A DNA stretch of 64,000 nucleotides. It comes from Thermoanaerobaculia bacterium (GTDB taxonomy: Bacteria; Acidobacteriota; Thermoanaerobaculia; Multivoradales; SZUA-115). The translations under genes and the position numbers were made by a program. Below, piece by piece: positions 1,528-60,700 of the stretch. Position 1 is the stretch's first letter; each line of letters starts with the position of its first letter. The notes beneath the pieces are model-generated. The model ran no database searches, was not told the DNA's origin, and saw nothing but the letters and a program-made list of their open reading frames with translations. The stretch spans positions 84,885 through 148,884 of the forward strand of contig DASUEU010000058.1 in NCBI GenBank assembly GCA_036274895.1. Direction: 5' to 3'.

Positions 1528-4500
1528 TCGCCCCCTCCTTCCTCGACACGGCCGAGCCAGAACAGGGCGCGGGCCGCGGCCGGCCCGGGGCCCTCGGTCT
1601 CCCCCGCCGCCTCGGCCCAGCGGGTGAAGCGCCGGCGGGCGCCAGAGTCCTCCTGGAGGCAGGCCTCCTTGACCGTGCAGGAGCGGCACCGGGGCCCCTG
1701 CTTCTCTAGGGCCGGGTCGAGCAGGCGGGGTACCCGGCTGCCCCGGGCCAGGGCCGCCACCACGGTGCCAGCCGACTTGGTGAAGGCGGGCCGGAGGGCC
1801 TCGAGCTCGTCCGGCTGGAGGCGCAGCAGGCGCTCTTCCGGCTGCCAATTCAGCTCCGGCCGGCCGAGGAAGAGATAGCCCCCACCGGGGCCATCGGACA
1901 GGGCCGAGGCGTAGGCCACGCCCTGGAGCCAGCGCCCTTGCGCCACCAGGACGGGCAGGCGTTTGCGGCTGTTGGCGGAGGCGGGTGGGTCGCTCCCCCG
2001 CTCGTCGAGGAACGGTCGACCCGCCTTGAGATCGAGCAAGGTCGGCTCCCCGGCCAGGGGCAGCAGCAGATCGGCGCGGAAGCCCACCCGCAGGCCCTCG
2101 GCGCCGGTCATGGCCTCCCCCCGCAGCTCCGCGCCCATCACAGCGGGCTGGGGCCCGAGGCCCTCGCGCAGCACGTTCCAGAACACCGCGGCCCGCTCGG
2201 CCAGGGCCGGTGTGAGCAGGGGCACCCCGTCCTCCCGGGCCACCCGCTCTGCCTCCCGCTCCAGCTCGGCGGCGATCTCGCCGGCCGGCGGCAGGGGCAC
2301 GCTCACCGGCGATCGGACCAGGGCCTCGGCGAGCTCGACCTCCACGGCCCCTCCCGCCCGCGCCACCAGCCGGGCCAGCAGAGCGTGCACCACCATGCCC
2401 ACCAGGCGCGGCGACAGCTCGGGCAGGCCGGAGCGCGGATCCGGCAAGGCGCCCAGGCGCAGCTCGCGGCCGAGGAAGCTCTGCCAGGGGCAGGCGGCGA
2501 CGGCCTCGATGGCGGTGACGGGAAGCACCTCCGGCAGGCTCCCCCTGCCGAGCAGCCCGAACCAGGGCCCCAACCGCCGAGCCCGTTCCCGGCCCTCGGG
2601 GCTGCCGAGGTCGGGGTCGAGCTCGTCGAGCACCGCCCGCCGCAGCCGCGGCGGCTCCCGCCGGCCGGCGAGGGCGAGAGCGGGAGGCAGGGCCGAGTCC
2701 CAGGCCCGGCGGTCGCCGGCCAGGCCGGCGCCGATCAACCACTCGAGGGCCGGCCAATCGCCGTCGCCCGAGGGATGCCGAAGGGTGCCAGCCGAGTTGG
2801 GTACGGCCCCCGACCAGCGCAGGCGATCGACGAACGGCGAGGCGGGCAACGGCTGGCCGGCCTCGTCCGCGACCGCCCAGGAGACCTCGACGGCCGGCGC
2901 CGAGCCGAGCAATTGGCCGAAGAGGTAGCTCTCTTCCTCCACCCCCAGCCCCTTGACCGGCAGGTCGGGCAGCAGCAGGGTGAGGGCCCGGCGCAGGTCG
3001 TCCGGCAGGAAGGGATCCTCCCGCACGGATCTGGGGAATGAACCGGCCTGCGCCCCGAGCAGGAAGAGGTGTTCGAACACCCGCCCCCTCGCCTCGGTCA
3101 CCGAGAGCAGCTGGACCCCGCTCCCGGCCCCTCCCAGGGACGGAGCATCCAGGCGCTCCTCGGCCCGCTCGGCGAGCAGGAAGAGCTCCTCGGGGGCCAA
3201 CGGCAGCTCACCCGGCAGCTCGGCCTCCAGGACCGCCAGCACCTGCCACGGTCGAGCCGGCGGGGACTCGGGGAGCCAGCCGAGGGCCTCCACGAGGAAG
3301 GTCCGGGCGTGGCGGAGGTGGGCCGACAGGGGGCGGGGCCCCCCCTCCCGTCCCGGCCAGCCGTCCAGGGCCGTCGCCGCCCGCTTCGCTCGCGCCAGCG
3401 CCGCGCGAAGCTCCGGCCCGGGCAGCCCCCGGCGCTGGCGCCCCGACCCTGCACCCTCCTCGTCCTCTCCTTCCTCGATGCTCGCCGCGATCGGCAGGGG
3501 CACTTGACCTGCGACCAGCACCGAGCCGGGATCCAGCCTCGAGAGGTCGGCCAGGCGCGAGGCCCCGAGGATGCGCAGGGCCAGGCGCAGCTCGGTGCTG
3601 CGGCCCTCCCCGGCCGCCTCCAGCCAGCGGTCGACGGGCGTCGCGGTGCCGGAGCGCAGCAGCTCGAGGAAGGCCGCCATGCGACGCTCCGGCCCGCCCG
3701 GCGAGGCGGCAGTGCCGGGAGCCGAGAACGGCACGCCGAGCCGGCCAAACGCCTCCGCCAAGGCCAATCGGTGCGAACCGACGTCCCGAGCCACCAGGGC
3801 GATGCGCTCGGGGACGGCGCCGGCATCGAGCAAGGCCCGGGCCGCCACCACGGCCCGGCGGGCCTCCGCTCCGGGCGTGGCGCAGGGGTGGAGCGACACG
3901 GCCGCGGCCTCCCCGTCCGGCTCGAGGGCGAGCTCGCTGGCCGGGCGGCCGGTGAGGCGCAGGGCCAGCCGGTCGGCGAAGGCGAGGCCGCCGGCTCGGG
4001 GGCCGGGCAAGTCGAGTAAGACCTCGGCCCGGCGGGCCACGACCAAGGTCTCGAGCAGGTCGAGAGCGAGGCCGGTGGCGTCCGCCCAGCCGTGGAGGAG
4101 AATGGCGCGGGCCGGCAGCAGCTCCGGGCGTGAGCGCAGCAGGGAAGCTGCGCGGGCGTAAGCCTCGCCGGTGCGGCCGAGCCCCAGGGCCGCGAGCTCC
4201 TCGCCGGTGTCGGCGGCCACTCGCAGCAGGGCGCGAGCCCGCTCGAGAGTGGGCTGCGGAAACGCCCCGGAGAGGGCCGCCACCCGCTCCAGGCAGGCTT
4301 CGAGATGGGCGCGTTCGAAGCCGGCGTCGAGCAGGTCCCGCACCGTGCCGGCGAGGGCGCCGTAGCCGTCGGCGAAGCCCCCGAGGGCCGCGGCCAGGGC
4401 TCGCTCGGCGCGGGCGCGGCGGCGCACCAGCACTTCGAAGACCAGGCCTCCCGTGGGCATCGGCTCCCCGGCCTCGAGCAGGGCACGACGGGCGAGGGCC

Positions 4501-8484: not shown

Positions 8485-8602
8485 CGCCTGAGCGGCGCCG
8501 CCAAAGGCGGTGACCGCCTCCAGGCGCCGGGTTCTGCGTGGAGGTCACGCGCTCCAGGCTCTTCGCGTAGTCGATTCCTGGTGCGAAGCCCGTCGAAGCC
8601 CG

Positions 8603-9154
8603 TCATCGCGCCGCTCTTGCGATCATACGCAGAAACTGCTGAAAGACGAAGTACAGGGCAACCCCTGTGAGTACCCATAGCACCAGCGTAGCGAGCATGA
8701 TCGATGCGCTTCGGTAGTGGAGCCAGGTCCCGGCGCCGATCAGAGGAGCCTGCAGGAACAGAGCGCGCAGTATCCTGACCCTGCCTCTCCGGCGAAGTAG
8801 GCGATCGCGCTGTCCCTCACATCCAAGGAGCCTCTCTTCGGCCGAGTGGAAGAGAGCTCCGACCGCAGGAGCAGCGCTGCGCTGGTGGAAGCGGGTCCAG
8901 TTCCGCCCGTTGTACCATTTCAGGTAAGGAAGTGACGCCAGATAGCACAGATGATCGACCACGGTTCCGAGTGAGTAGCAAGCAACGAGAAGGACGAAGA
9001 GCAAGGATGGTCCCAGGTTGTCCGGGAGTCGAGTTATCCAGTCGATGAGAGACTCCGGGGAGCTGCCGCTCACGGCCAACCCAAAGAGGCTGATCCAGAG
9101 GGCGGCGAGGCAGCCAACGACGAGGTACTCCGCGATGAGTGTCGTCCAACTCAT
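8603..9154 (-). CDS. hypothetical 4-TM membrane protein (low-GC island gene C)
   Basis: 183 aa with four hydrophobic helices and ordinary codon/amino-acid composition in a ~52% GC segment. I recognise no family. Confidence 0.5.
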   Translation of the reverse strand: MSWTTLIAEYLVVGCLAALWISLFGLAVSGSSPESLIDWITRLPDNLGPSLLFVLLVACYSLGTVVDHLCYLASLPYLKWYNGRNWTRFHQRSAAPAVGALFHSAEERLLGCEGQRDRLLRRRGRVRILRALFLQAPLIGAGTWLHYRSASIMLATLVLWVLTGVALYFVFQQFLRMIARAAR

Positions 9155-9274
9155 GACTCACCTATGGTTCGCTACTAACCGCCCTTTGCCGTCGCCGAAC
9201 GTTCATCGCCTCACCGCCGCGCACCAGCGCGGGCAGTGCAGGCAGTGGTTGGGCAACTCTAGATGACGTCAGGT

Positions 9275-10405
9275 TCACTGACTTGCCCCAATCTCTTTGA
9301 GTTTAGAAGCCATATCAAGAACCTCTTGCACCGCAGTCTTAGGTGCCTCGCCGAACGGTTGAGGCGAGACTGAGACTGTCTTTACGACCTCCCTTCTCAG
9401 AAGAGCACTTGCCTCTTGGTCAGAAGCAATGAGTTGCAGCGACTCAGCCTTCTGAGCAAGGACAGCAGCCTGGTGGCTGTGGTATTTGTAGACAGAAAAG
9501 AAAATCTGAACAAGCAGGAGAGTAAGCACAGCGATGGTAGCGCGGATCGCAATATCAGGCCAGCTTGTTTGTGACTGGGTCTGAATCGTCTTTAACAACT
9601 GCTCATAGCTCTGGCTATGGCTATAGTTTTGACGAATCTCGCTGAGGAGTTCCGGTGCGCGCTTCTGGAAGAACTCTCGGGCTTCGCTTGAGACAGCTTC
9701 CTTCTCAAGACGCTCCATTACGGTGGCCAGTCGAAGCACCTTGTACCTCTCGGCCTCTACGTCACGGAGGCGCTCGACATGACTACTCATCCAGAGTCCT
9801 ACAGAGGCGCCCCCGCCGATGAAGACAAGAACAAACATCGCGGCCATACTGATTCGGCTCGTTCGCTCGGCTGCAAGGCTTCTGGCGTAAAGCCTTCGAG
9901 TTACCAGACCTAGAGCCTTCTGCGATGTCTCTGGCTCTAGTGCAGATGGCAGAGACACAGAGGCATCGCTATCCTCAAGGCCTTGGTCCCGGTGCGAGTT
10001 TGGAGCCGACTGAATGTCAATGCCTGACGAGTGTTCAGCACGGGCTACCCGAGAGAGGAGCACCGAGAGTACTCCGATTAGAGATATTCGCACCCCCGCG
10101 GTAATCGCTTCGGCGACGCCGGCCGGCACACTCAATATGTATTGTGAGAATGAAGCTACAATTAATTCCTGGGCAAAAAAAAGGAGAAAAAAAGAATGAG
10201 GCAATACTTCCCATGGCCCAGATAGTTTACCAAGGCGGACAACATGGCGTGCTATCTGCGCCATCAGAAGTGCGGAGACAAGCCCCAAGAGAAACCACGC
10301 GTCGATACGATTGCCAGATAAGAAGCGGACATAACTAGTCGTAACCCCGACGACAGCTGCCAAGGCGACAAGCCAGGTGCTCGAGCTGGGTTGCACGATT
10401 GCCAT
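9275..10405 (-). CDS. hypothetical multi-pass membrane protein with central coiled-coil (low-GC island gene B)
   Basis: Likely starts MAIVQPSS at ATG 10405, preceded by a GAAGGGGGAAG RBS. The listed ORF extends to 10540 through an inverted repeat. It has four N-terminal TM helices, a fifth TM, an Arg/Glu-rich coiled-coil, a further TM and a C-terminal tail. Confidence 0.55.
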   Translation of the reverse strand: MAIVQPSSSTWLVALAAVVGVTTSYVRFLSGNRIDAWFLLGLVSALLMAQIARHVVRLGKLSGPWEVLPHSFFLLFFAQELIVASFSQYILSVPAGVAEAITAGVRISLIGVLSVLLSRVARAEHSSGIDIQSAPNSHRDQGLEDSDASVSLPSALEPETSQKALGLVTRRLYARSLAAERTSRISMAAMFVLVFIGGGASVGLWMSSHVERLRDVEAERYKVLRLATVMERLEKEAVSSEAREFFQKRAPELLSEIRQNYSHSQSYEQLLKTIQTQSQTSWPDIAIRATIAVLTLLLVQIFFSVYKYHSHQAAVLAQKAESLQLIASDQEASALLRREVVKTVSVSPQPFGEAPKTAVQEVLDMASKLKEIGASQ

Positions 10406-10472
10406 CTTCCCCCTTCCAATATCTAGCCTCTCAGAGTGTTGAGCTCTGTCGCCCAACGTTTGAGCTGAGGCG

Positions 10473-10559
10473 CCCGCAACGGCAGGCCGCCTTGGCCGGG
10501 CAGCCGAGAATGGCCGAAGGCTGAGCGGCTGCCCGGCCAAGGCGGCCTGCCGTTGCGGG
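10473..10559. repeat. perfect 34-bp inverted repeat (19-nt loop)
   Basis: cccgcaacggcaggccgccttggccgggcagccg at 10473-10506 is exactly the reverse complement of 10526-10559. Confidence 0.9.
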
Positions 10560-10591
10560 TCGCATCGAGCGAAGGGTTAGGCATCGCCGGG

Positions 10592-11596
10592 CTACGCGAG
10601 CTTGGACTGAAGAAAGCGAACGAGTGCTATCGCGCCGTCGATGCCTTGCTCGACCTGTGGGGCCTCGACGTCCTTCTGCGCGATGTTTCCGTGAACCAGA
10701 TCGTTGCGAATGCCACGTAAGCGATCAACTGCATCGATCGCAGCTTGAACCCTGCGGAGGTCGGTCTTGCCGAGAGAGAGCGGAAGGACGATGTTTAGGA
10801 GGTTGTTGAACGTAAGTTCATCACGAAGGCGCTTGATCTTGTTGTTGCTGAAGCCGCTCTCCTTGAGGGCTTTGAGCCCGTATGCTCGAAGCAGCGTCTC
10901 GGAGATGATAGACGCCTCGATGGCGGCTGCACGTAGCTCCCGCCAGCCAGCTTTCCCTCGGATTCTGTAGAGCTCAAGAAGCTCGCCTTCAGGAAAGGTC
11001 CCATTGTCAGCGGCGCGCTGCATGTCGCGCCAGCGTACGGGAGTGACTAGTTGCGCGGCGGTGTACAGCGGGTTGCGGCCGCGTGGTTTGGTTAGCTTCG
11101 GCTGAAATGGGGTGAACGTCGTTCCGTCAACGCTCCACTCAACTTGACCGCGAGACAGTCTGCCGCCGGTAAAGAAGTTGGTCATCGACTCGGGACCCAT
11201 CCGCATCAGGTAGCGCACCTTCCCAGCTGAGTACAAGAGGGCCTCGAACTTGGTGTGCGCTTCTACGTAGGCATCGTAAATGGCTTCGGCGGCAGTAGCA
11301 CTAGCCGTGCCTTTGCGCGAGAGACTTTGGACGAGATCCGGGGGCGCTGGGGCGTAGTGAAGTTCGATTCGACCACTTGGGAAGAGGATCACGTCTCGCT
11401 TCCAAGGATGCTTCTCTTCCTCCAAGTAGACGAGCACCTTGGCGCGCGTCAGCTGCATGGACAGCGGGGTATCGTGATCCTGCTTCCGCCACTTTGATGC
11501 GCCAAAGCTCGGGAAGTCGATCGGCCTGCGGATGATGAGCTGCGACATACAGTGGATGCGATGCCTAACCAGTAAGCGTCTTTCCGAAGTCCGCAC
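10592..11596 (-). CDS. hypothetical protein with C-terminal HEPN-like R-x4-H motif (low-GC island gene A)
   Basis: The ~110-aa alpha-helical C-terminus contains ..DRLRGIRNDLVHGN.. (RNxxxH) at 10691-10708. The alternative ATG start at 11548 would give 318 aa. The N-terminal 200 aa match no family I recognise. Confidence 0.5.
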   Translation of the reverse strand: MRTSERRLLVRHRIHCMSQLIIRRPIDFPSFGASKWRKQDHDTPLSMQLTRAKVLVYLEEEKHPWKRDVILFPSGRIELHYAPAPPDLVQSLSRKGTASATAAEAIYDAYVEAHTKFEALLYSAGKVRYLMRMGPESMTNFFTGGRLSRGQVEWSVDGTTFTPFQPKLTKPRGRNPLYTAAQLVTPVRWRDMQRAADNGTFPEGELLELYRIRGKAGWRELRAAAIEASIISETLLRAYGLKALKESGFSNNKIKRLRDELTFNNLLNIVLPLSLGKTDLRRVQAAIDAVDRLRGIRNDLVHGNIAQKDVEAPQVEQGIDGAIALVRFLQSKLA

Positions 11597-11972
11597 GTGG
11601 TTGGGTATGGCAGATCGCCCCGGGGGCCATCGAGGGCTCCCCGGAGACGCGCGGATTTCGGAAAGACGTGCGTTGGACGAAGCCGCGGGCCGCTGGCGCA
11701 GGTCTATGGAGTTTGAATCGAGCGCTGGTGAAGCGGCGCAGGGAGGGGGTCCTGGTCTGAGCCTCGCTCGCCGGGGCGCGGGTGCCGCGCCAGCGGGCGT
11801 GCCGAGCCTCCGGGATCTGATTCCTGCTGCTTAGCAGTTGCACGGTGGAGCGATTTTAGCACTGCGCACCTCCGGGCGCAGAGAGGCTTCCTGGGGCCCG
11901 AGCTGTGGGCCGAGCGAGGAGGGTTGGGATCATGGGGCAGCAGCTCCGGCGCCGGGCGGAGGGCGGGCGCGA

Positions 11973-12113
11973 GCCACCGCCGGTGACGACCGTGCGCTCG
12001 TGGGGATGAAAGGTCAGGGTCTGGCTCCAGGTGTAGAGGGCGGAGAGCAAACCGATTTCCGCACCGAGGTGCTTGGGGTCGGCGGCGCCGAGGGCGTCCA
12101 GGAACTTGAACAA
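11973..12113 (-). pseudogene. IS91-family (Y2 HUH) transposase remnant
   Basis: The fragment ..LLSALYTWSQTLTFHPHERTVVTGGG.. matches the conserved IS91 Tnp block (..LHTWGQNL.LHPHLHCLVTGG..) with the HUH histidines degraded. It is only ~47 aa and the surrounding frames are broken. Confidence 0.4.
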
Positions 12114-34346: not shown

Positions 34347-34399
34347 GGTGCCAGCCGAGTAGGTACGGCGATGCCGCACCAAGGTGCCAGCCGACTTGG
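34347..34399. repeat. tandem pair of the dispersed motif GGTGCCAGCCGAsTTGG
   Basis: ggtgccagccgagtagg (34347-34363) and ggtgccagccgacttgg (34383-34399) lie between convergent gene ends. Confidence 0.8.
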
Positions 34400-41626: not shown

Positions 41627-42055
41627 GTGGCGGCCCCGTCCCTGCTTGACACCAATTCGGCTGGCACCTACAATTGCACCATGACGCAAACGTGCAATCT
41701 GGGCGATCGACACGCCTGCTGCGCCCAGGTGGGTGCCCTGCTCCGGCCGGAGCTGTTCCGGGCCCTCGCCGACCCGACCCGCCTGGCGGTGCTGCTCCGG
41801 CTCGTTGAGCTCGGCCGGCCGGCCACCGTGTCCGAGATCGCCTGCTGCTGCCCGATCGACCTTTCCGTGGTCTCTCGCCATCTGGCGGCCCTCAAGGCCG
41901 CGGGAATCACTACCTCCAAGAAGGAAGGCAAGGAGGTGCGCTACCGCGTGCTCTATGCCTCGCTGGCCGCAACCCTGCGCGAGCTGGCAGCGACGATCCT
42001 CGCCTGCTGCCCGTCGCAAGAGGACCCGGAACCCAACCCAGGAGAAACTCCATGA
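41627..42055 (+). CDS. arsR: ArsR/SmtB-family metalloregulator
   Basis: Winged-helix block ELFRALADPTRLAVLLRL with Cys pairs. The start is either GTG 41627 or ATG 41681. Its stop overlaps the arsM start as ATGA. Confidence 0.8.
   Translation: MAAPSLLDTNSAGTYNCTMTQTCNLGDRHACCAQVGALLRPELFRALADPTRLAVLLRLVELGRPATVSEIACCCPIDLSVVSRHLAALKAAGITTSKKEGKEVRYRVLYASLAATLRELAATILACCPSQEDPEPNPGETP
41652..41668. repeat. dispersed motif copy (arsR 5' region)
   Basis: ccaattcggctggcacc. Confidence 0.7.
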
Positions 42056-42888: not shown

Positions 42889-44321
42889 GCACCCTCCCCC
42901 ACCTCGGCGCCCGGTCCAACCCCCGGCGCCGAGCCCTCCTCCTCGGAGGTGCCAGCCGCTTTGGGAACGGGCGGCTCGACAGAGTTGCCCGAAGCCTCGA
43001 CGAGAGGCCCCGGCTCGCCCTTGTGCTCTGCTCGGCCAGGCGCTTCGGTGGCCGCCAGGACGAACGAGTTGTTCTCGACGACCACCTCGGCAGCCCCGTC
43101 CGCGACCACCCGCCCCCCTTCGAAGCGGTTCCTGGACACCACGAAACGAGGGAGACGAAGCCCCGGCCCGCGGACCTTCCAGCGGATCTCCTCGCCGCTG
43201 CTCAACCGATTGCCGACCACTGTGACCCGGCCCCCGAAAGCTGGGTCCAGCCCCCCTCGCAGGCGCAACGCCAGGAACGTTCCACCGCCCTTGGAGAAGT
43301 TGTCTTCGATCGCCACGTCGCCGTTCCAGCCGAGATTGACGGTCGCGACCGCTGCGTTGTGGAGATCCTCGAAGCGATTGGCGACAACATGCGTCCCCCG
43401 GTTCTTCGCCGAGAAGGTCACCGCACCATCGCTGTGCCCCGCTTCTCGGTGCCTCCTCCCCAGCGCGCTGAAGCTGTTGCCCTCGATCAGCACACCAGTG
43501 GTCGCCGAGAGATGGACTCCCGCCCCGGCCCCACCATGAAACTGGTTGCCGGTGAGCTGGACGTCATTGGCTGAGAAGAGCTGTACAGCGTCGCCCCAGG
43601 AATCGACGAAGCGACATCCTGTCACCGCCAACCTGCGCCCCATCAAGAGGAGGGACTCTCCCCGCTGCCAGGCCACGTATTGGTGATTCCCCCGGTAGTT
43701 CCCATCGAAGATCAGCCCCTCGACCCTGAACCCGTCGACCGGCGCCCAGGCACGCACCAGGGAGGCGATCGTGACCACCCGATCGCCCGCTCGGTAACCT
43801 CGGCCGAGCTGTGCGCCCAGGATCAGCCGGCGGCCGCTGTCGACGCTGAGCACCCGCAACCGCCGGTGCGGACCTTCGCCGTCGGCCATGGCCAGACCCG
43901 CGACCGGCGTCACGTAGAAGCCGGGCCGGAACGCTGAAGCATCTTCGAGCTCGACGGCGGTGGCCCCCGCCGCCACGTCGTTCAGCAAGCGAGCCACCAC
44001 GCTGTCCATCCTCAGGAGGGTGGCTCCCCGGCCGACCCAGCGTTGACCTGGCAGGGGTCGGAGCTCGCTGCACAGCCGGTAAACCCGATCCGGCTCGAAA
44101 AGCACCACTCCCCCCACTCCCGCGGCCGCGACCACGGCCTGGAGGCGCCCCTCCTCGCAGCCGGTGTCCTGACCAGCGCCAAACCGAAAACCCGATACCT
44201 CAACAGTCCGCGGCAGCAGGGGGTGCGGCAAGCCACGGGAAGGCGCTGCAGCAAGCAGCGATGTGAGGCCGGCGGCGAGCCAGAGCAGGGATCGCTTGCC
44301 AGGGCGGGTGTTCTCCCTCAT
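42729..44321 (-). CDS. secreted right-handed beta-helix (pectate-lyase-like) repeat protein
   Basis: Signal peptide followed by repeated GN-rich beta-helix turns (NDVQLTGNQFHGG.., IEGNSF.., IEDNFS..). The 3' 160 nt overlap the arsM 3' end convergently, and the low-complexity C-tail may be non-functional. Confidence 0.6.
   Translation of the reverse strand: MRENTRPGKRSLLWLAAGLTSLLAAAPSRGLPHPLLPRTVEVSGFRFGAGQDTGCEEGRLQAVVAAAGVGGVVLFEPDRVYRLCSELRPLPGQRWVGRGATLLRMDSVVARLLNDVAAGATAVELEDASAFRPGFYVTPVAGLAMADGEGPHRRLRVLSVDSGRRLILGAQLGRGYRAGDRVVTIASLVRAWAPVDGFRVEGLIFDGNYRGNHQYVAWQRGESLLLMGRRLAVTGCRFVDSWGDAVQLFSANDVQLTGNQFHGGAGAGVHLSATTGVLIEGNSFSALGRRHREAGHSDGAVTFSAKNRGTHVVANRFEDLHNAAVATVNLGWNGDVAIEDNFSKGGGTFLALRLRGGLDPAFGGRVTVVGNRLSSGEEIRWKVRGPGLRLPRFVVSRNRFEGGRVVADGAAEVVVENNSFVLAATEAPGRAEHKGEPGPLVEASGNSVEPPVPKAAGTSEEEGSAPGVGPGAEVGEGAQTGLVADTRALHTLPAKEATRSAERSARELPQQEAACPASSDSTRAWSCSGS
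42948..42964. repeat. dispersed motif copy (3' tail of beta-helix ORF)
   Basis: ggtgccagccgctttgg. Confidence 0.6.
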
Positions 44322-44356: not shown

Positions 44357-44373
44357 GGTGCCAGCCGCCTTGG
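44357..44373. repeat. dispersed motif copy (between beta-helix and RAYT gene starts)
   Basis: ggtgccagccgccttgg. Confidence 0.6.
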
Positions 44374-44431
44374 GAGAAGGGAGCTCGACCCGCCTCTTCG
44401 GGGCGCTGCCGCTGTTTTCCGTCTAGTACAA

Positions 44432-45448: not shown

Positions 45449-46159
45449 ATGTACCGACACATCGACTCATCCAAGGTCCAGGGCACCCTGGGCCAGCTGG
45501 GACGACGAATCTCTGAGCGCTTTCCCAACTCGGGGCTGTCCAAGGTCTGCGCCGAGATCGAGCTGGTGGCCCGCGAGACCGAGGAGCACTGCAGCTGGAT
45601 CGCCCGCCCTCAGTGGTCCATCCGTGCCGCCGTCGGCGCAGTGATCCTGATCGCCGCGCTGGGCCTGGCGAGCGTCTTCGTGCGTCTCCAGGTCCGGGTC
45701 GAGAGCCTGGACGTGAGCAATATCCTCCAGGGAGCCGAGGCTGCCACGAACGAGTTGGTGCTCCTCGGCCTCGCCGCGGTCTTTCTCGCCGGAGTCGAGA
45801 GTAGGGTCAAGCGAAAGCGAGCCCTGCAAGGGCTCCACCAGCTACGCGCTCTGGCGCACGTGGTCGATATGCACCAGCTGACGAAAGACCCGGAGAGCTC
45901 CGTGTTCCCCGGCCGCAGCACGCCATCCTCTCCCCAACGCAACCTCTCCCCCTTCGAGATGGTGCGCTACCTCGACTATGCGAGCGAGATGCTGGCCCTG
46001 ATCGGCAAAGTCGCCGCGGTCTACGCTCAGCACTTCGACGACCCAGCGGTCCTCGCCGCGGTCAACGACATCGAGGACCTGACCACCAACCTCTCGCAGA
46101 AGATCTGGCAGAAGGTGACGATCGTCGAGAGCTTGCGCGATCGCGCGGGGTCCCACTAA
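45449..46159 (+). CDS. hypothetical 2-TM membrane protein
   Basis: 236-aa ORF with ATG start and two hydrophobic helices. I recognise no family. Confidence 0.45.
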   Translation: MYRHIDSSKVQGTLGQLGRRISERFPNSGLSKVCAEIELVARETEEHCSWIARPQWSIRAAVGAVILIAALGLASVFVRLQVRVESLDVSNILQGAEAATNELVLLGLAAVFLAGVESRVKRKRALQGLHQLRALAHVVDMHQLTKDPESSVFPGRSTPSSPQRNLSPFEMVRYLDYASEMLALIGKVAAVYAQHFDDPAVLAAVNDIEDLTTNLSQKIWQKVTIVESLRDRAGSH

Positions 46160-46203
46160 GCGGTCGTCGCCCAGGACGCGAGGTCTCCCAACTCGGCGGT
46201 CAC

Positions 46204-46264
46204 CCAAGTCGGCTGGCACCTTTGGATTGGGGTTCCCCTGGGGTTCCCCAAGTCGGCTGGCACC
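46204..46264. repeat. tandem pair of the dispersed motif (reverse orientation)
   Basis: ccaagtcggctggcacc at 46204-46220 and 46248-46264, separated by ttggattggggttcccctggggttcc. Confidence 0.8.
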
Positions 46265-46276
46265 TCTTGTGGGGCG

Positions 46277-49458: not shown

Positions 49459-49483
49459 GACAGCAACCTCCTGGACGTTGGCC

Positions 49484-50728
49484 TCACGCCGCGTCGCTGC
49501 GCGTGAGAATCAGAGCCGCCGCGTGGCCGTCGAGGCCGAGCGCGGTGGCGAGCACCGTCCGCGCGTTGACGGCCCGGGGCCGGTTCGAAAGGGAGAGCGC
49601 GAGGCCCGGCTCCGGTTCGCCGAGACCGCCGATGCCGGGAAGTCGGCCGGAGGACAGGATCTCCAGCAGGGCAAGGGCCTGGAACCCGCCCGAGGCTCCG
49701 AATGCCTCGCCGAGGGCTCCCTTGATGGCCGTGGCGGGCACCGCCTCGGCCGCTTCCTCCAGGGACGAGGCGAGGCCCAGGGCCTCGGCGAGGTCCAGCT
49801 CCAGACTGCCCGACCCGCCGGTGACCACGGCCCCCAGGTCCCCGGGCCCGAGGCCCGCATCGGCGAACGCCGCTCGCACCGCCCGGCCCAGGGCCGAGGC
49901 GGCGCTCCACGGGTCCTGGCCCATCGATGGATCGAAGGCGGAAGCGTGGCCCACCACCTCCCCAAAGAGGCTGGCACCTCTGGCGCGGGCCCCTTCGAGC
50001 TCTTCGAGCAGCACCAGCGCGGCCCCCTCGCCGAGGGCGAACCCTCGCCGCCCGGCCCCGAACGGCACCGGTGAGCTCCCGGCCGCGGCCAGCAGGCCGG
50101 CACGACCGTAGGTCAGCCCGGCCTCCGGCGACAGCTCCTCCGCCCCCCCGGCCAGCAGCGCTTCGGCGTGCCCACCGCGGATCAGATCCGTGGCGTGACC
50201 GATCGCCGCCAACCCCGCCGTGGCCCCCCCGGCCATCGTCGAGTTGAGTCCCACCAGACCGTGCCAGATGGCTGTCTGCCCAGCCGGGGCGTTGATCACG
50301 CTGTTGGCGAAATCCAGGGGCTTGACGTAGTTCGGGCCGGCGGTCAGCCCGCGGCGATCGAACTCGGCGATGGTCTTGAGGCTGCCGAACTGGGTGCCCA
50401 GAACCAGCCCCACCGGCTGCGTCCGGCTCTCGACCTGGGCCAGACCCGCCTCGGCGAGAGCCAGTCCGGCAGCTGCCGCGGCCAGCCGCGAGGTCCGGTC
50501 GAGGGGCCGGACGTTGCGGTCGCCGAAGTAGGTCTCCGGCGCGAAGCCCCAGACCTCGCCGGCGACCACCGCGGCACAGCCGTTCCAGGTCGCCAGCGCC
50601 GACGGCCCGAGGCCCGACCGGCCCTCCTCGAGCGCAGCGGCGAAGGCCCCCGGCGTGTCCCCGAGGGGTGAGACGAGGCCCCGTGCGGTGACCACGACGC
50701 GGCGGCGGGAAGCGTTCAGGGCCGCCAC
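49484..50728 (-). CDS. ketosynthase-like chain-length-factor (KS beta, no active-site Cys)
   Basis: KS fold (..RRVVVTARGLVSPLGD..) with AGG at the position aligned to the catalytic TACAAG Cys. A GTG start overlaps the KS alpha 3' end. The listed ORF extends further in the same frame. Confidence 0.65.
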   Translation of the reverse strand: MAALNASRRRVVVTARGLVSPLGDTPGAFAAALEEGRSGLGPSALATWNGCAAVVAGEVWGFAPETYFGDRNVRPLDRTSRLAAAAAGLALAEAGLAQVESRTQPVGLVLGTQFGSLKTIAEFDRRGLTAGPNYVKPLDFANSVINAPAGQTAIWHGLVGLNSTMAGGATAGLAAIGHATDLIRGGHAEALLAGGAEELSPEAGLTYGRAGLLAAAGSSPVPFGAGRRGFALGEGAALVLLEELEGARARGASLFGEVVGHASAFDPSMGQDPWSAASALGRAVRAAFADAGLGPGDLGAVVTGGSGSLELDLAEALGLASSLEEAAEAVPATAIKGALGEAFGASGGFQALALLEILSSGRLPGIGGLGEPEPGLALSLSNRPRAVNARTVLATALGLDGHAAALILTRSDAA

Positions 50729-51936: not shown

Positions 51937-52211
51937 GCCAGAGCTGCCTCGGGCTGGGGCTGGGCGAGCTCGCTCAGCCGCTCGAGCACCAGCGCCACGG
52001 TTTCTTCCACGTTCGAAAGGGAGCGCATACGCTCCTCTGGCAGGTTGAGCTTGAAGGCGTAATCGACGTCTACGCCGATCTCGAGGAGCGAAAGGGAGTC
52101 GAGGTTGAGATCGTCGATGTATGAGTCAGTGTCACCGATCTTGGCGGGATCGAGGTTGGTGACGTTGGCGATGATCTCTTTGATCTTGGTGCGGATTGAC
52201 TCGACTTCCAT
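51933..52211 (-). CDS. acyl carrier protein
   Basis: 92 aa with phosphopantetheine site DLNLDSLSLLEI. An AGGAGAG RBS precedes the start, and its stop is coupled to the KS start as ATGA. Confidence 0.8.
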   Translation of the reverse strand: MEVESIRTKIKEIIANVTNLDPAKIGDTDSYIDDLNLDSLSLLEIGVDVDYAFKLNLPEERMRSLSNVEETVALVLERLSELAQPQPEAALA

Positions 52212-52467: not shown

Positions 52468-55400
52468 TCAAGGCCATCCGAGCCCCTCGAGCTCGGCCGC
52501 CGGGCGGCCTTCGACGCCGAGATCGACCACCAGGGTGGCGTCGTCCGAGGAGAGCTCGACCTCGCGCAGGCAAGCCCGATCCCGGCGTGGATCGGCAAAG
52601 ATGACTCGATAGCGGCCCGGGGCCAGCCCGGCGAAAGCGAAGCGCCCCTCCGGATCGGTCTGACCCACGACCATCGAGCCGTTCGCCCCCAACGCGCCGA
52701 CGGTGGCTTCCACGAACGGGACGCCGTTCGACAGCAGCAGGCCGGCCAGACGCAGACCTTCGGCGAGCACCAGCTCGAGCTCGACGAGACGCTGCCCGGC
52801 CCCGATCTCGACCGTCGCCTCGGTCCCCTGGTTGGTGGCGGCGCTGACCACCGAGACCCGCCAGGTGCCCGGGGCAAGCCCCTTCATCTCGAAGCCTCCC
52901 CGGGCGTCGAGCCTGGCCCAGGCCGTCTGACCGTTTTCGTCGGCGGCCGTCACCTGCACGCCCGCCATCTGCGCGGCTTCGAGGCCCACCACTCGTCCCG
53001 CGAGCGTCGCACCTCGCGCCAGGACCACCTCGAAGTCCGCGATCGGCCGCTCGCCGACTTCCAGCGGCAGGCCTTCGCTGGGAACCAGGAAACCCTGGGT
53101 CTGGACCATCAGCCGATAGGTGCCGGGTGGCACGGACGGCATGCGGAACTGGCCGTCCGGGGCCGACATGGTGTGGAGGGCGGCACCGGAACCCTCCGGC
53201 TGGGCGAGCAGCAGCAAGGCCCCCCCCACGCCCGCACCCTCCTCGTCCACGACCCGACCTGCGACCGACACGCCCCGGCGCAGCACGAAGTCTCGCTGCT
53301 GGGTGCCGGGCCGGATGTCGACCTCGTGGGTCTCGGCGACGAAGCCTTCGGCCGCGACCCTGACCGAGATCTGCCCCACCGCGAGGCCGGCCAAGCGGTA
53401 GCGGCCCGAGGCATCCGTGGCGCCGCCTGCGGTCCCCAGCATGGTCACGGTCTCGGACTTCGTCTGGGCGAAGATCGCGGCCCGGGGATGGGGGCGGCCC
53501 TCCTCGTCGACCACCGTGCCCTCGAGCATGGCCCCTGGCTGCAGGCGCAGGACGATGCCGGCCCGGCGCTCGCGGGGACCCAGCTCCAGTCCGGCGAGGG
53601 CAGCGGGCAAGTAGTCGTCCGCGGTGGCCGCCAGCTCATAGCTGCCGGGCTCGATCCCCGAGAGGACGAACTCGCCATTGCTTTCGGTGGGCTCGGCCGC
53701 GAGGATCGGGATGCGAAAGCGCGGACTCGCCTCCCCGGCGCCGGGCCCGGCGGGGAGCAGGTGCACCGTGGCGCCCTCGACCGGTGCCCCGGCCCCGTCC
53801 ACCACCTGCCCCGAAACCTGCGCTCCCGGGTCCAACACCAGCCGCAGGGGCCGCTCGGGCGGGACTTCCACGCCCGCCGCCCGGGTGACCCGGTAGCCGG
53901 TCTTGCGGGCCGTCAGGTCGACCGTGCCTCCAGCCGGGAGCCCGCCGATCTCGAAGCGCCCGTCGGCACCGGTCGAGGCGAAAAAGGAGGCCTCCTCTCC
54001 CGGGGACACACCGAGCACCGGAGCGGAACCGGAGGCGAGCTTGGGCGTGGCCTGGAGGTCGACGCCGGCGACCGGCTCGCCGTCGCGGTCGACGACCTTG
54101 CCTTCCAGCCGGGCTCCGGGGTGAAGGGTGATCACCCCGAGATCGGCTACCCCCGCCTCGCTCGCGACCGGCTGCCGCCGGATCTGCCCGGGAGCGAAGC
54201 CGGGCGCCTCGGCCCTGAGATCGACCAGGTCGCCGGCCAGGCCTACCAGCTGGTAGGCCCCCGACTCGTCCGTGGTGGCTCGGGTCTCTGGCTTCGCCGG
54301 CTCCGGGGAGACCCAAGCGAGATCGTCCTCGAGGTGCAGCGAGGCGTAGACGGTCGCACCCACCACCGGGCGGCCCTCGCGGTCCTCCACCCGGCCGTGG
54401 CCCTCGACCCGGGAGCGCAGCACGATGCGCAGCCCCGTGTGGCTGCCGCCGGCGTCGAGGCCGGCCAGACGGATCGGCTCGGCCCAGAAGCCTTCGACCT
54501 CCACCCCCACGGCATATCGGCCTCGGGGATCCAGGCCTACGAGCGCGAAGCGACCGTCCGGCCCGCTGCGACCCAGTGCCATGGCATCTCGGGCGTCGAC
54601 TCGCAGGCCGCCCCAGCCGGCCAGGACCAGCACGTCGGGCACCGCGACGCCCTCCCCGTCGACCACCACCCCCTCGATCCTCACCGCCGGTCGCAGCAGG
54701 AGAGAGACTTCGGAGCCGTCCTGCCGGCTCGGCCGTTCCTGATCTGGATGGAAGCCGGCCGCCGCGGCCGCCAGGGAAGCCGCGGCGCCCTCGGGCCGCA
54801 CCGCCAGACGGAAGCGGCCGCCCCGACCGGAGACGGCATGGGACCCGTGTTGTCCCGGCGCCCACACCACCGCCCCTGCCACCCCCTCGAGGTCGGGCAG
54901 AGACCTCACCCGGCCCTCCCTCACCACCAGGGCCGGCAAGGTCACCGGCTCGGGCCTCGGCTCGGCCTCGGTCTCGAGCGGCGGCAGAGTCAAGGCCAGC
55001 TCTTCGCCGTCCGGCCCCACCAGTAGCCGCTCGAGGGGCCGGCCGGCCTGGCCGCGCAGCACCAGCAGGCCGTCCGGTCCGGTGGGCCCGGCCACAGGCA
55101 GGTCGGCGAGGAGGGCGAGGACTCCCGCCAGGGGCCGACCCCGGGGGTCGCGAGCCACCACGGGCCTCTCCCGCCCGGGCTCGAGAGTCAGCGCCACCTT
55201 CTCGCAGGACGGCGGCAGGCTCTCAAGCAGGGGAGCCTTGCCCGGTGCCTCCACCGCCACGCTCACCGCCACCCCCGCCGCGCACGGCAGAGCGAGGCGC
55301 CCGGCCTCGTCGCTGGCGAGGAAAACGGGGGCGAGCAGGGTCTTGAGCCTCTGCGAAGGGCCCAGGTGCCGGAAGTCGGCCGCGCTCTCCCCCAAGGTGC

Positions 55401-55881
55401 CAGCCGAGTTGGGGGCCGCCTCGAAAGTGGCGAGGATCCGCGCTCCGGCCAGGGGCTCGCCCCTCTCGTCGCGCACGGTCAGCGTCCTCCTCCCGGCCCG
55501 CGGCAGCGAGAAGGGAGCCAGCTCCCGCTCTTCCACCAAGGGCGTCAGGAAGAGGGCGAGGCCCAGGTGGTCGGGGGCCCCCACCGTCAGCCGCCACAGG
55601 CCCGGCTCGGGAGCCAGGATCTCGAAGCGGCCGTCGCGGCCGGCCCGCGAGCGGGCCACCGGCTCGGCCACGATCGGCAACACCGGCGCCAGCTCCACCG
55701 AAGCTCCGGCGAGCCCTTGGCCGTCCGGCCCGGTAACGACGCCGGAAACGGGGATCGGCTCGGCCAAGACCGCGAGGGGGAAGAAGGAGAGGACAAGTAG
55801 CTGGGCGAGGACGGTGCGGGCGAGGCGGCGGTGGCAGGACACACGATCCCCCTTCCTTCGAGAGCGAGAGAATACGCCCAT
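52468..55881 (-). CDS. giant secreted protein of tandem CarboxypepD_reg/prealbumin-like domains
   Basis: 1137 aa with a signal peptide and ~10 repeats of the G.VVD..G.P..GA.V pattern. Confidence 0.65.
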   Translation of the reverse strand: MGVFSRSRRKGDRVSCHRRLARTVLAQLLVLSFFPLAVLAEPIPVSGVVTGPDGQGLAGASVELAPVLPIVAEPVARSRAGRDGRFEILAPEPGLWRLTVGAPDHLGLALFLTPLVEERELAPFSLPRAGRRTLTVRDERGEPLAGARILATFEAAPNSAGTLGESAADFRHLGPSQRLKTLLAPVFLASDEAGRLALPCAAGVAVSVAVEAPGKAPLLESLPPSCEKVALTLEPGRERPVVARDPRGRPLAGVLALLADLPVAGPTGPDGLLVLRGQAGRPLERLLVGPDGEELALTLPPLETEAEPRPEPVTLPALVVREGRVRSLPDLEGVAGAVVWAPGQHGSHAVSGRGGRFRLAVRPEGAAASLAAAAAGFHPDQERPSRQDGSEVSLLLRPAVRIEGVVVDGEGVAVPDVLVLAGWGGLRVDARDAMALGRSGPDGRFALVGLDPRGRYAVGVEVEGFWAEPIRLAGLDAGGSHTGLRIVLRSRVEGHGRVEDREGRPVVGATVYASLHLEDDLAWVSPEPAKPETRATTDESGAYQLVGLAGDLVDLRAEAPGFAPGQIRRQPVASEAGVADLGVITLHPGARLEGKVVDRDGEPVAGVDLQATPKLASGSAPVLGVSPGEEASFFASTGADGRFEIGGLPAGGTVDLTARKTGYRVTRAAGVEVPPERPLRLVLDPGAQVSGQVVDGAGAPVEGATVHLLPAGPGAGEASPRFRIPILAAEPTESNGEFVLSGIEPGSYELAATADDYLPAALAGLELGPRERRAGIVLRLQPGAMLEGTVVDEEGRPHPRAAIFAQTKSETVTMLGTAGGATDASGRYRLAGLAVGQISVRVAAEGFVAETHEVDIRPGTQQRDFVLRRGVSVAGRVVDEEGAGVGGALLLLAQPEGSGAALHTMSAPDGQFRMPSVPPGTYRLMVQTQGFLVPSEGLPLEVGERPIADFEVVLARGATLAGRVVGLEAAQMAGVQVTAADENGQTAWARLDARGGFEMKGLAPGTWRVSVVSAATNQGTEATVEIGAGQRLVELELVLAEGLRLAGLLLSNGVPFVEATVGALGANGSMVVGQTDPEGRFAFAGLAPGRYRVIFADPRRDRACLREVELSSDDATLVVDLGVEGRPAAELEGLGWP
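55394..55410. repeat. dispersed motif copy (inside giant CarboxypepD_reg gene)
   Basis: ggtgccagccgagttgg. Confidence 0.7.
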
Positions 55882-57760: not shown

Positions 57761-60700
57761 TTACGGCGCGGCGCGTGGCAGTTGGGAGAGGTCCAGCTCC
57801 AACGTCTGGTCAGCGTCGAGCGTGAGCACCTGCTCGTAGGCCGCGGCCATCCGCTCGCCCAAGGTGCTGAGGACCATTCGATACCGCCCCGGCTTGAGCC
57901 CCCGCAAAGCGAAGCGACCCTTCTCGTCGGTCATCGTGCTCGCGCGTCCTGCCTCGCCCTCGAGCGCGAGGTGCATCCGCTCGACGGGCGCCGTCCCCCA
58001 CAGCAGCTGGCCGGACAGCGACAGCCCCGGCGCGAGAGGCAGCGTCACCGACGCCTCGAGCGCCCCTTCGGCGAGCTCGACGGCGGCGGACCCGCTCAAG
58101 TTCTGGGCGCCCGGCACCGCCTGCACCTGGTACGAACCGGGAGCCAGGCCCTCGAGCCGGAAGCGGCCTCGAGCGTCGACGGCGGCCGAGGCCCGAGGGC
58201 CCTTCCCATCGAAAGCGGCGACCCGCAGCCCGACCGTTTCCGCGGGCTCGACACCGGTGACGGCCCCGACGATCGCCCCACCCCGGTCGAGCACCAGCTC
58301 CAGATCCTCCACCGCCTGGCCTCCCACCTCGACTGAGGTGGGGCCGGCCGGAGCCCGATAGCCCTCGCGCTGCGCCGCGATCACGTAGCGCCCCGGCGGC
58401 ACGCCGCCGATGCTGAACGAGCCCTCCCGGCCGCTCTGGATCATGGCCAGGAATGGCCCGCCGGCTTGCTCCTCCAACACCACGTTGGCACGGGGCACGG
58501 GGACCCCCTCGGCGTCGATCACCCGGCCTCGCACGGTCGCGCCCCGCCGCAGGGTAAAGTCGAGCCGGCCGCCGGTTTCGGTGACCTCCACCGACTTCTC
58601 GACCGACAGCCACCCCTCGGCGCCGGCGGCCAGCTGCTGATGGCCCGGAGCGATCCCCTCCAACCGATAGCGCCCCGCGCCGTCGACCCCCGTGCCACCA
58701 TCGCGGATCAGCTCTCCGGACAGCTCGCGGACCTGGCTGACCCACGCCCCCAGGACCGGCTGGCCGGCCTCGTCCAGCACCTGCCCCTCGAGCACGGCTC
58801 CTTTCGAGAGCACCAGGTCGAAGCCCTCGACCTTCGAACCGGCTGGCACCTCGATCGTGCGCGGGGAGGCCGGCAGGTAGCTGCGCGCGCTCGCCGCAAC
58901 GCGGTATGGACCCCCGGCCAGCTTCTTGACCTCGAACCGGCCCTCCTCGTCGGTGCGAGCCCGTGCCGCTCGCCACGGCCTCGACCGCCGCAGCTCCGGC
59001 GGCAGGGGCGAGACCGGATCGACCTCGACCTCTGCTCCAGCGATCGGCTCGCCGCCCGCCGCGACGACCCGGCCCAGCAGCCGTGCCGCCGGTTCCAGAA
59101 CCACTTCGAGAGGCGAGTCTGGAAGGGGCACTTCGACGTCCTCGGTGGTGGCGCTCAGGTAGTCATCGTGCTCGACCCATACCGAGATCCGCGCCCCGCT
59201 CGGCAGCTCCCCGAAACGGAAGCGACCCTCCTCGTCCGTGAAGCGGGGTAGTAAGGCCCGGATTGGCCGAGGCGTGCCTTGCGTGAGCCCGGGCAACCCT
59301 CGGCTCAGCCGGTAGCCGACCCTCGCCCCGGCGACGGGCAAGCCCGAGCGGTCTACGACCCGACCTGAGACGACGGCCTCCGGGCCCAGGCGCAGGGTAC
59401 CGAGGTCCAGGGGACCTCGGCCGGCATCGACCTCGCGATCCGCCTCGATGGCGGGGGCGAAGCCCTCAGCCCGGGCGATCACCTCGAGCCGCTGCGCCGG
59501 GGGCAGGGCCTCGACGCGGAAGCGGCCTTCCTCTGCGGAAACCACGGGCGCTCCTGGCTCAGTGCCCATCCGCAGCTCGCGCTCTTCGGCGCCGGACGGC
59601 CTGGCCGTCACGTAGACCTCCGCTCCGGCCACCGGTCGGCCTTCGGGATCCACAACCAGGCCGAAGCCGGCGCGTTGGGCGGTGAGCACCAGCCGTAGCC
59701 CGGTGACGGGCTCGCCGCTCTCGAGGCCCTCGACCACCAACGGCTTGCCCACGAACCCTGGAGCCGAGGCCGAAAGCAGCGGCCAGAAGCCAGGAGGCAC
59801 TCCCCTGATGTGGAATCGGCCGTCGGCGGTGGAGATGGCTCGGTGGGCCGTGAGCCGGCCCTCGGGGCCCAGGGTCACGATGGCTCCACGAACGGGCGCA
59901 CCTTTCTCGTCCACGACCTCCCCTGCAAGGGAAGCGGCCGGGCGGAGAGCCAGGATCAGCTCGCCCTCGGTCATCGGGGAAGCGGGCAGCACCCCCGGCG
60001 CGAATCCGGGCGCTGCCGCGCGCAGCTGCACCGATCCCACCGGGGCGCTCAGGCGGAAGCCTCCCCGCCGATCGCTGAGCACGTAGCCGGCGAGGATGCC
60101 TGCCCCCTCGAGCCAGACCACGGCCCCGGGCAGCGGTTCGTAGGGCTCGGCGACCATCACCCGGCCGGTGACCTCGGGGACGGGCTCGAGCGTCACTCGC
60201 CACGGAGTCGGGGGCGCCGGCGAAGGGCCGACCTCGGCGCGCCAGCCGTCTGGGGCCTGGAGTGAAAGGGCTGCCGCTCGGGCGGGGTCGAAGCGCAGGG
60301 CGAGCCGGCCGTCCCTGTCACTCGGTCCGGCGACCTTCACCCCCTCGAGCCGCGCCTCGACTCCCTCGACGGGTCGGCCTCGCGGCCCCACCAGCTCGAC
60401 GGTGCGCTCGACGCCGCCGGTCACGGTCCAGGAAGCGGCGTCGCAGCCGTCCGGAAGATCCTCCGCCCGCGGCGCGAGGCCGTCGGCAGCCACCACCAGG
60501 CGCCACCTCACCGCTTCCGCACAAGGCAGCTCGATCGAGCCGTCGCTGCCAGTTGTGCCGGAGATCTCGGCCGGCCTGGCCTCGCCGCGGGCTCGAGGCC
60601 AGGGAGAGCCGGGTCTGGGCTGGACTTCGGCGACCGGTTGGGCCAACCACCGGGCGCCGGAGAGGGCGCGGCCGGCTGCGTCCCGCAGCGTCAGGGGTCG

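Follow-up and report, generated by a model that had tools for sequence, protein, structure and literature searches.

Why should one short DNA word recur, almost letter for letter, both within and between the genes of a single bacterial locus? The question is raised by a stretch of 64,000 nt (70% GC; hereafter the window) from a metagenome-assembled genome (MAG) of the Thermoanaerobaculia (Acidobacteriota). The original prediction for this DNA had described a 17-bp motif whose coding copies always share one frame and orientation, such that a short peptide is inserted into unrelated proteins, and had proposed a small insertion element, a recombination hotspot or a transcription-coupled signal as its source. 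Our analysis indicates instead that the word is a DNA-level element acquired at some sites without any insertion. With moderate confidence, we interpret it as the cognate recognition repeat of a putative RAYT-like Y1/HUH enzyme encoded at positions 44435-45352 of the window, a relationship of the RAYT or TIRYT type. The repeat is probably an unusual one for this type, being non-palindromic, partly intragenic and present in what is likely a low number of copies.

The consensus obtained from a sequence logo is (c)CCAA-NNN-GGCTGGCACC(t), in which 14 bases are fixed. Over-representation was measured in the window and in sampled loci. In the window, the sequence CCAANTCGGCTGGCACC has seven exact matches compared with 0.00 expected from shuffles. 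When only the 14 fixed bases are scored, there are 10 perfect sites, one site with a single mismatch (one-off) and three with two mismatches, against expectations of 0, 0.1 and 1.8 under a third-order Markov model. CCAA or CCTA is found three bases before GGCTGGCACC at 11 of the 12 decamers in the window, and the most frequent 12-mer of the window derives from the word. Seven of these copies reside on the minus strand and five on the plus strand, and five of the 12 are intergenic. The presence and enrichment of the motif were therefore borne out, as were all of the coordinates reported for it earlier except 55394, which should read 55396.

Within the window, seven of the nine loci that carry the word are located no more than 10.6 kb from one gene (position 44.9 kb; binomial p ~0.008 from coordinates). 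This gene was missing from the original prediction, though it sits in the middle of the cluster. The open reading frame (44435–45352, plus strand) encodes a predicted 305-aa protein of the Y1/HUH tyrosine transposase family, which matches Pfam Y1_Tnp with 31.7 bits (cut-off 23) and the NCBIfam model REP_Tyr_transpos (NF047646) with 51.3 bits (E = 1e-13; 141 of 146 model positions). Both catalytic motifs are present, the HUH motif as SNH61-F-H63LLL and the tyrosine (Tyr122) as RLRY122. Residues H61, H63 and Y122 do not vary among the nine closest homologs, and across 38 family members H61 and Y122 stay fixed. The family is large, with 555 cluster representatives at E < 1e-30; its proteins are ~310 aa long, and a C-terminal extension of ~160 aa is conserved. 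All 38 aligned family members match REP_Tyr_transpos, only 6 of the 38 match the IS200 model, and the family profile matches Protein Data Bank entries for ISDra2 TnpA (2xo6/2xm3; 7e-5) and Escherichia coli TnpArep (4er8; 1.2e-3). Homologs also carry the JGI label 'REP element-mobilizing transposase RayT'. A single-sequence structure prediction of the protein gave a mean pLDDT of 36 and was unusable.

A hallmark of RAYT genes is the over-representation of 16-mers in their flanks (Bertels et al. 2017, PMC5581495), and the RAYT-like TIRYT genes are flanked at fixed distances from the coding sequence by inverted repeats that are not repetitive extragenic palindromic (REP) sequences (Di Nocera et al. 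2013, PMC3733652). The gene in the window is flanked by inverted copies of the word. The left repeat (44357..44377, minus strand) is a perfect copy with NNN = GGC that is placed on the strand opposite to the gene, with its GGCTGGCACC end 69 nt before the start codon. The right side (46188..46264, plus strand) is oriented with the gene and comprises a degenerate copy at 46188 (two mismatches) followed by a perfect direct tandem at 46204 and 46248 with a 44-nt period. The inverted arms (44357-44377 and 46200-46220) are 21 nt long and 90% complementary, and they enclose both the RAYT-like gene and a co-oriented gene for a 236-aa protein of unknown function (45449..46159, plus strand).

A second species, here called JBIO, is represented by two MAGs (JBIOWG and JBIOYC; 99.8% identical) through loci L119, L180, L183 and L040, and its proteins are 77–91% identical to those of the window. 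It retains the RAYT-like gene in conserved synteny with the same bracket, and its counterpart of the 236-aa protein is 85% conserved. The layout also recurs beside far more distant homologs. Two unrelated contigs, L185 and L186, contain RAYT-like homologs of 54% and 49% identity, respectively, and the 236-aa gene is absent beside both. In L186, where the same bracket is found, GGCTGGCACC occurs five times compared with 0.14 expected. An opposite-strand copy precedes the start codon by 71 nt, three same-strand tandem copies (two perfect, one one-off) follow the stop codon by 232-295 nt, and a further direct pair is located 4 kb away. The opposite-strand upstream copy is thus found at three of the four loci and at nearly the same distance (-69 in the window, -68 in JBIO and -71 in L186), and tandem copies 43–44 nt apart are located downstream of the gene in these three. 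All four doublets seen are direct repeats. In L185, AAGAATCGGCTGGCACC occurs twice, both times inside genes, with 0.04 occurrences expected for the decamer. The distance between the CCAA arm and the core differs by lineage (3 nt in the window lineage, 2 nt in L186 and 5–6 nt in L185), and the only gene common to the neighborhoods in the window, L185 and L186 is the RAYT-like one.

By comparison, the word has no copies in 64 kb of three other Thermoanaerobaculia loci from related MAGs whose sampled stretches lack the RAYT-like gene. One of these loci, L181, is syntenic with the window at 66–69% identity; the motif-free loci L178 and L179 were picked via a highly conserved paralog family and are non-syntenic. 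Note that L184 is a duplicate of L182.

Upstream of the RAYT-like start codon, a box with the sequence TT(C/G)CGTCT is found at a distance of 10-15 nt in four of four loci (window 44412-44434, L183, L185 and L186), and it may be an extracytoplasmic function (ECF)-type -10 element or another control element. On the other side of the bracket, an HxlR-family gene and a DinB gene are positioned between the RPE65-side pair and a 235-aa gene in the sister species (L180 8264-9415 and L183 11611-12762) but are missing from the window (46160-46276). The degenerate third copy at 46188 abuts the pair in this interval, which could be the result of a rearrangement at the repeat.

Several copies of the word are intragenic. 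Two perfect copies are in sense orientation in an AddB-like PD-(D/E)XK nuclease gene, one at 1764..1780 (minus strand; CCAAGTCGGCTGGCACC) that encodes KSAGT at aa 995 and one at 2784..2800 (minus strand) that encodes NSAGT (aa 655) within a loop of variable length. Two more sense copies, also perfect, are carried by the C-terminal tail of a beta-helix/NosD-like open reading frame (42948..42964, minus strand; NNN = AGC; KAAGT) and by the gene for a 1137-aa CarboxypepD_reg protein (55396..55412, minus strand; NSAGT at aa 158). The fifth perfect copy (49962..49978, plus strand; CCAAAGAGGCTGGCACC; NNN = AGA) is antisense in a ketoacyl-synthase gene (49484..50728, minus strand), in which GGT GCC AGC CTC TTT GG is read as GASLFG.

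JBIO has the word at nine of nine testable orthologous positions, which are the two AddB sites, the ketoacyl-synthase, CarboxypepD_reg and beta-helix tail sites, the arsR promoter spacer discussed below, the copy upstream of the RAYT-like gene and the RPE65-adjacent pair (two copies). The JBIO sequences are CCAAAGTGGCTGGCACC (KVAGT) at AddB-995, an identical 18-mer for the copy at 2784 (L119 3108), CCAATTCGGCTGGCACC (NSAGT) in the same beta-helix tail and, for the copy at 55396, the one-off CCACCTCGGCTGGCACC (TSAGT). The RPE65-adjacent pair (46204/46248) is kept with NNN = AGA and a diverged spacer. Over the nine orthologous copies, identity is 125/126 for the core compared with 14/27 for the NNN positions and 224/360 (62%) for the ±20-nt flanks (Fisher p = 2e-20 and 1e-10). 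The claim that the word is a DNA element rather than a protein motif is upheld by these data, given the perfect intergenic copies, the peptide changes caused by the NNN positions while the 14 core bases stay fixed (KSAGT to KVAGT and KAAGT to NSAGT) and the retention of rare codons that the word imposes (GCT, 7% of Ala; GGT, 10% of Gly; TTT, 5% of Phe).

The same is not true of the proposal that the motif inserts a peptide. Alignment of the AddB aa-995 site with 40 homologs reveals no indel (FTKSAGTVV compared with FAGAVETLL and similar sequences), and there is likewise none at the ketoacyl-synthase site relative to four orthologs or paralogs (GASLFG compared with GATVLG in the syntenic motif-free relative). 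At the latter site, 9 of the 14 core bases already match in the DNA of this motif-free relative. The AddB aa-655 copy is in an indel-rich loop and is uninformative on insertion. The lack of indels at AddB-995 and in the ketoacyl-synthase gene indicates that at least two coding copies arose in place by substitution.

With genes called by codon usage together with Pfam, the sense copies at 1764, 2784, 42948 and 55396 all occupy the frame NCC-AAN-NNG-GCT-GGC-ACC, as had been reported, and the beta-helix tail that carries the copy at 42948 is coding in both species. However, the rule that coding copies always share this frame and orientation does not extend beyond these four. The copy at 49962, absent from the original prediction, is antisense, conserved and identical in JBIO; the copy at 41652 is noncoding; and in the lipid-A acyltransferase gene of a relative (L049) a sense copy is read in a different frame, as QVGWH. 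An antisense one-off copy is also present in addA of a relative (L119 7947). We compared the coding copies with a model that treats codons as independent and was derived from the genes of the window. For coding copies, the model predicts shares of 67.5% for the observed frame, 18.7% for antisense V-P-A-x-L, 6.9% for Q-x-G-W-H and 5.2% for G-A-S-x-F/L-G, with 75% in sense orientation, and the independent coding loci observed in the same four classes (4, 1, 1 and 1) fit this distribution. Therefore, no special or transcription-coupled mechanism is needed. The shared frame is the one best tolerated in a GC-rich genome, and codon compatibility accounts for the bias. More generally, codon compatibility can fully account for a repeat that takes the same frame in unrelated proteins when the genome is rich in GC.

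The copy at 41652-41668 (within 41646..41683, plus strand) had been taken for a coding copy in an upstream extension of arsR. It is instead the exact 17-bp spacer of TTGACA-N17-TACAAT, an 11/12 promoter match and the only strong one in 13 kb. The promoter block, including the spacer copy, is conserved in JBIO. The ATG/GTG start 6 nt past the -10 element is kept in the sister species, unlike the alternative starts upstream. In its own right, the arsR gene appears to be leaderless (TACAAT, 6 nt and ATG, or GTG in the sister species; window 41646-41700), and an inverted repeat over its start codon, TGCAC-N12-GTGCA, may be an ArsR operator.

These results bear directly on the explanation first offered, in which a small insertion element, or else a signal that is coupled to transcription or acts at the RNA level, is tolerated in one frame and only in co-directional orientation. 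Some observations do agree with it. The four sense copies of the window share one frame, the intergenic pairs are downstream of a co-directional gene, and the RPE65-adjacent pair and the ~100-nt intergenic region around it are both absent in motif-free L181. Nevertheless, this model is largely refuted, and we regard it as highly improbable. Beyond the absence of indels at AddB-995 and the ketoacyl-synthase site, there are conserved antisense coding copies and a copy in another frame, codon usage alone predicts the bias, and the arsR copy between the -35 and -10 elements is upstream of the transcription start and hence untranscribed from that promoter. An RNA-level element was also rejected on structural grounds. 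Fold z-scores were -1.0 and +0.1, with no significant structure in the tandem pair at 34347..34399, an Rfam search matched no family, and antisense and promoter copies exist.

Near-perfect conservation combined with an origin by substitution in place is also how selected binding sites behave. Accordingly, the copies could be operators or landing sites for some other protein that binds DNA sequence-specifically, for instance a local regulator or a loading system like parS/KorB, and could be held by purifying selection with the RAYT-like gene as one member of the regulon. The copy in the arsR promoter spacer, the copies in two divergent promoter regions and the apparently low, clustered copy number would all suit such a system. 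We nevertheless consider it unlikely, because the RAYT-like gene alone is common to the three motif-bearing neighborhoods; neither L185 nor L186 has ArsR, HxlR or the 236-aa protein. In addition, an asymmetric site with 14 fixed bases does not resemble the operators of dimeric helix-turn-helix proteins, and a regulatory role is not apparent for the many copies located inside genes or between convergent ones. An example of the latter is the tandem direct pair with a 36-nt period at 34347..34399 (minus strand; perfect at 34383 and one-off, with CCTA, at 34347) between convergent amidase and methyltransferase genes.

Substitution as the source of copies is equally expected for a DNA-uptake-sequence-like or other genome-wide 'drive' word that propagates through biased uptake or conversion and becomes fixed through point mutation where coding allows. 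The use of both orientations, the codon-compatible frame distribution, the positions kept in the sister species and the excess of perfect over one-off copies in the two species (~18 compared with 5-6) are in line with this idea. So are the copies in the genome-maintenance genes addB and addA, and Neisseria uptake sequences are reportedly biased toward genes of this kind. The Neisseria DNA uptake sequences and Pasteurellaceae uptake signal sequences resemble the word in accruing by point mutation, in adopting frames that yield benign peptides and in being kept at orthologous sites in sister species. However, they number hundreds to thousands, are evenly spread, have 9-12 fixed bases and have no tie to a transposase, whereas the word is clustered and apparently scarce. 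To our knowledge, 14 fixed bases exceed any known uptake sequence. The spread of the word is uneven, with a 31-kb gap in the window (2.8 to 34.3 kb) even though ordinary genes fill that stretch, and no perfect copy is present in a separately chosen, independent JBIO locus of 21 kb. Furthermore, the intergenic pairs are direct rather than inverted, and such a word would leave unexplained why it is so closely tied to the RAYT-like gene in three lineages. An uptake or drive word is therefore, in our assessment, very unlikely.

Searches of broader collections speak to copy number. A scan of a genome collection with the 17-mer returned at least 118 matches, mostly single chance matches in unrelated taxa, with L040 and L049 (MAG040) being informative. 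For MAG040, two stretches were among the matches listed compared with at least five exact matches known there. These few stretches, together with the JBIO locus that lacks a perfect copy, tentatively suggest tens of copies per genome (~10-30) rather than hundreds. Viral contigs contained 54 single word matches, consistent with chance, and RAYT-like homologs were found neither in viral contigs nor in plasmids. A metagenome scan for the two-copy pattern recovered only unrelated 15- or 20-bp tandem coding repeats, and a literature search for the sequence string yielded primers only. The tandem repeats, such as CCAAGTCGGCTGGCACC, are from an actinomycete MAG and metagenome contigs (L063 409-665 and L120-L123) and are chance matches to the motif that can mislead pattern scans. 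Those of 15 bp would translate into repeats of five residues (…AGTKA… type).

Two further known elements share features with the word, and we assign them next to no likelihood. The core contains TGGCAC, as does the sigma-54 -24 element (CTGGCAC), but a sigma-54 promoter (TGGCAC-N5-TTGC) was rejected since no copy has a conserved -12 element downstream at the required spacing; the single TTGCA, found at 41652, is off register by one base. A polar sequence of the Chi/KOPS type is suggested by the AddAB genes in the window and by a word density there that resembles that of E. coli Chi. This possibility, the recombination hotspot of the original prediction, did not hold up. Copies occur on both strands of one window (7 minus and 5 plus) without a GC-skew switch, and 14 fixed bases are too long for such a sequence.

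Compared with known transposase-associated repeats, the word is close to several described systems but differs from each in some respects. It resembles REPtrons in that a Y1/HUH gene, syntenic in both species, is flanked by the most over-represented oligomer of the region in an association that is long-lived, and in that the repeats are often paired and located between convergent genes or downstream of genes. However, the word is not a REP. REP and REPIN sequences are imperfect palindromes with a GTAG/CGTC tag that are extragenic, usually exceed 100 copies and form inverted pairs (Nunvar 2010; Bertels & Rainey 2011; Bertels et al. 2017, PMC5581495; Ton-Hoang 2012; Messing 2012). By contrast, the word has no hairpin, forms direct pairs, is ~40% intragenic and probably has tens of copies, and its consensus contains no GTAG/CGTC tag. 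With TIRtrons and TIRYTs, the locus shares a RAYT-like Y1/HUH gene, inverted non-hairpin flanks at a fixed distance and a moderately abundant repeat family that occurs as singles, dimers and clusters. Some terminal inverted repeat (TIR) families are known to be moderately abundant and to exist as dimers or clusters, including in Acidobacteria (PMC3733652). The published acidobacterial TIRYTs are proteins of ~180-200 aa with the motifs HVH ... Y...NPV..GLV, of which NPV..GLV is seen in aba 1552/3477, tsa 392, aca 645 and gma 794 (PMC3733652 supplement alignment). The predicted protein of the window differs in its length of 305 aa, in its ~160-aa C-terminal extension and in having HGCKESLV at this position rather than NPV..GLV, and its repeat is outside the published GGGGWSAS TIR consensus and has intragenic copies without indels. 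Membership in the published acidobacterial TIRYT group or in class 2 is ruled out by the absence of the NP motif. Extra C-terminal domains without REPs are found in many TnpA-Y1 subclasses (Quentin et al. 2018, PMC6006769).

REPs have likewise been described inside genes, and many of these genes function in replication and repair (PMC3733652). The in-frame copies in functional genes described for Rickettsia palindromic elements (RPE) and for REPs of Opitutus terrae and others (PMC3733652) are comparable to those found here, also in affecting repair genes (uvrA/uvrB in those cases and addB/addA in ours). They differ in that they are insertions that add 20-30 aa, whereas the two well-aligned cases here add none and derive from pre-existing near-matches. 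Finally, IS200/IS605 elements belong to the same catalytic superfamily (HUH plus a single Tyr), and the family profile matches ISDra2 TnpA, but their ends are asymmetric subterminal hairpins rather than inverted repeats, they are multi-copy, and the IS200 model matches only the 6 of 38 family members noted above.

The arrangement that we favor is thus of the REPtron or TIRtron type, in which a domesticated IS200-related tyrosine transposase gene would be bracketed by an inverted short sequence, with further copies nearby and at a few other loci. The recognized unit would consist of the invariant 10-nt GGCTGGCACC core and a lineage-specific CCAA arm. The enzyme would bind the word, probably on single-stranded DNA exposed by replication or repair, or else on duplex DNA via its conserved C-terminal domain, and it may cut and rejoin DNA at this site. 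Intergenic tandem units with periods of 35-44 nt would behave like REP/TIR dimers, and intragenic copies would survive only where the word reads as tolerable codons. In a 70% GC genome the tolerable frame would overwhelmingly be the one that yields x-[N/K]-x-A-G-T, and this restriction would account for the frame regularity that first drew attention to the motif. We infer from sequence that this protein binds or cuts the word, and the same holds for the origin of new copies and for a role in the cell.

Several observations weigh against this interpretation. Intragenic copies make up 5 of the 11 motif-bearing copies in the window (~40%). The protein, at 51.3 bits, does not reach the NCBIfam equivalog cut-off of 80 for RAYT, and the class-2 Y---NP signature is absent, the family consensus being Y-x-L-x-x-G-x-K-E-G-L-V; we classify the predicted product as RAYT-like and not as a RAYT equivalog. 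DNA folding of 18 copies on both strands detected no shared hairpin, unlike the REPs and IS200/IS605 ends that Y1 enzymes recognize. The downstream copies are not immediately adjacent to the RAYT-like gene in either the window or JBIO, as one to three other genes intervene, and in L185 the upstream copy, 58 nt from the gene, is one-off and on the same strand. The independent lineages examined number only three. With the word at every testable JBIO position, no transposition event is seen, and 'peel-and-paste' insertion by a Y1 enzyme fails to explain copies that arose by substitution.

A more specific proposal is that this large, uncharacterized ~310-aa branch of domesticated Y1/HUH enzymes, which lacks the NP motif, maintains or even writes a few GGCTGGCACC copies at fixed sites, including addB/addA and the ketoacyl-synthase gene, by a substitution-type short-patch conversion instead of insertion. 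We hold this proposal to be rather improbable. If true, the word would not be a selfish repeat but a functional landmark for the processing of single-stranded DNA. The core that is kept beside ~50%-identical homologs, the copy near -70 and the substitution-born perfect copies in essential-looking genes point to host-level constraint over selfish spread. As to what domesticated RAYT/TIRYT enzymes do for their hosts, the short hairpin-free word and the protein encoded beside it make this a testable case.

The remaining features of the window are of more local interest. At 58834..58850 (plus strand), antisense in a second CarboxypepD_reg gene, a half-site has a perfect GGCTGGCACC without the CCAA arm (two mismatches), which may have decayed from a full copy or may match by chance; 1.8 two-mismatch sites are expected by chance. 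In the JBIO AddB gene (L119 3035-3100), a 31-aa in-frame insertion that consists of two units of a different repeat (…CATCCCGAACGAAGTCAGGGTCATCCCGAGCGAAGCCGAGGGATCTC…) is located ~10 nt upstream of the AddB-655 copy; this repeat has no match in the window with three mismatches allowed. The beta-helix open reading frame (window 42729-42900) continues for ~55 codons beyond the stop position of the sister species and overlaps a convergent methyltransferase gene by 160 nt, which could be due to loss of the stop codon or to a fault in the assembly.

Elsewhere, a motif-free island (window 8400-12000) has a GC content at third codon positions of 0.6-0.7 compared with ~0.9 in other parts and is probably horizontally acquired DNA; its open reading frames (8603..9154, 9275..10540 and 10592..11596, all on the minus strand) have no Pfam match. 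Two tandem paralogs (35294-36562 and 36790-38064) are 89% identical and belong to a very conserved ~420-aa family without a Pfam domain, of which each Thermoanaerobaculia genome has several paralogs; homologs at E < 1e-40 exceed 5000. Lastly, three species share an operon-like run (window 46277-52211) for an acyl carrier protein, two ketoacyl synthases, an RPE65-family oxygenase and a flavoprotein of the halogenase/lycopene-cyclase-like kind; this run may constitute a small biosynthetic cluster for a lipid or pigment.

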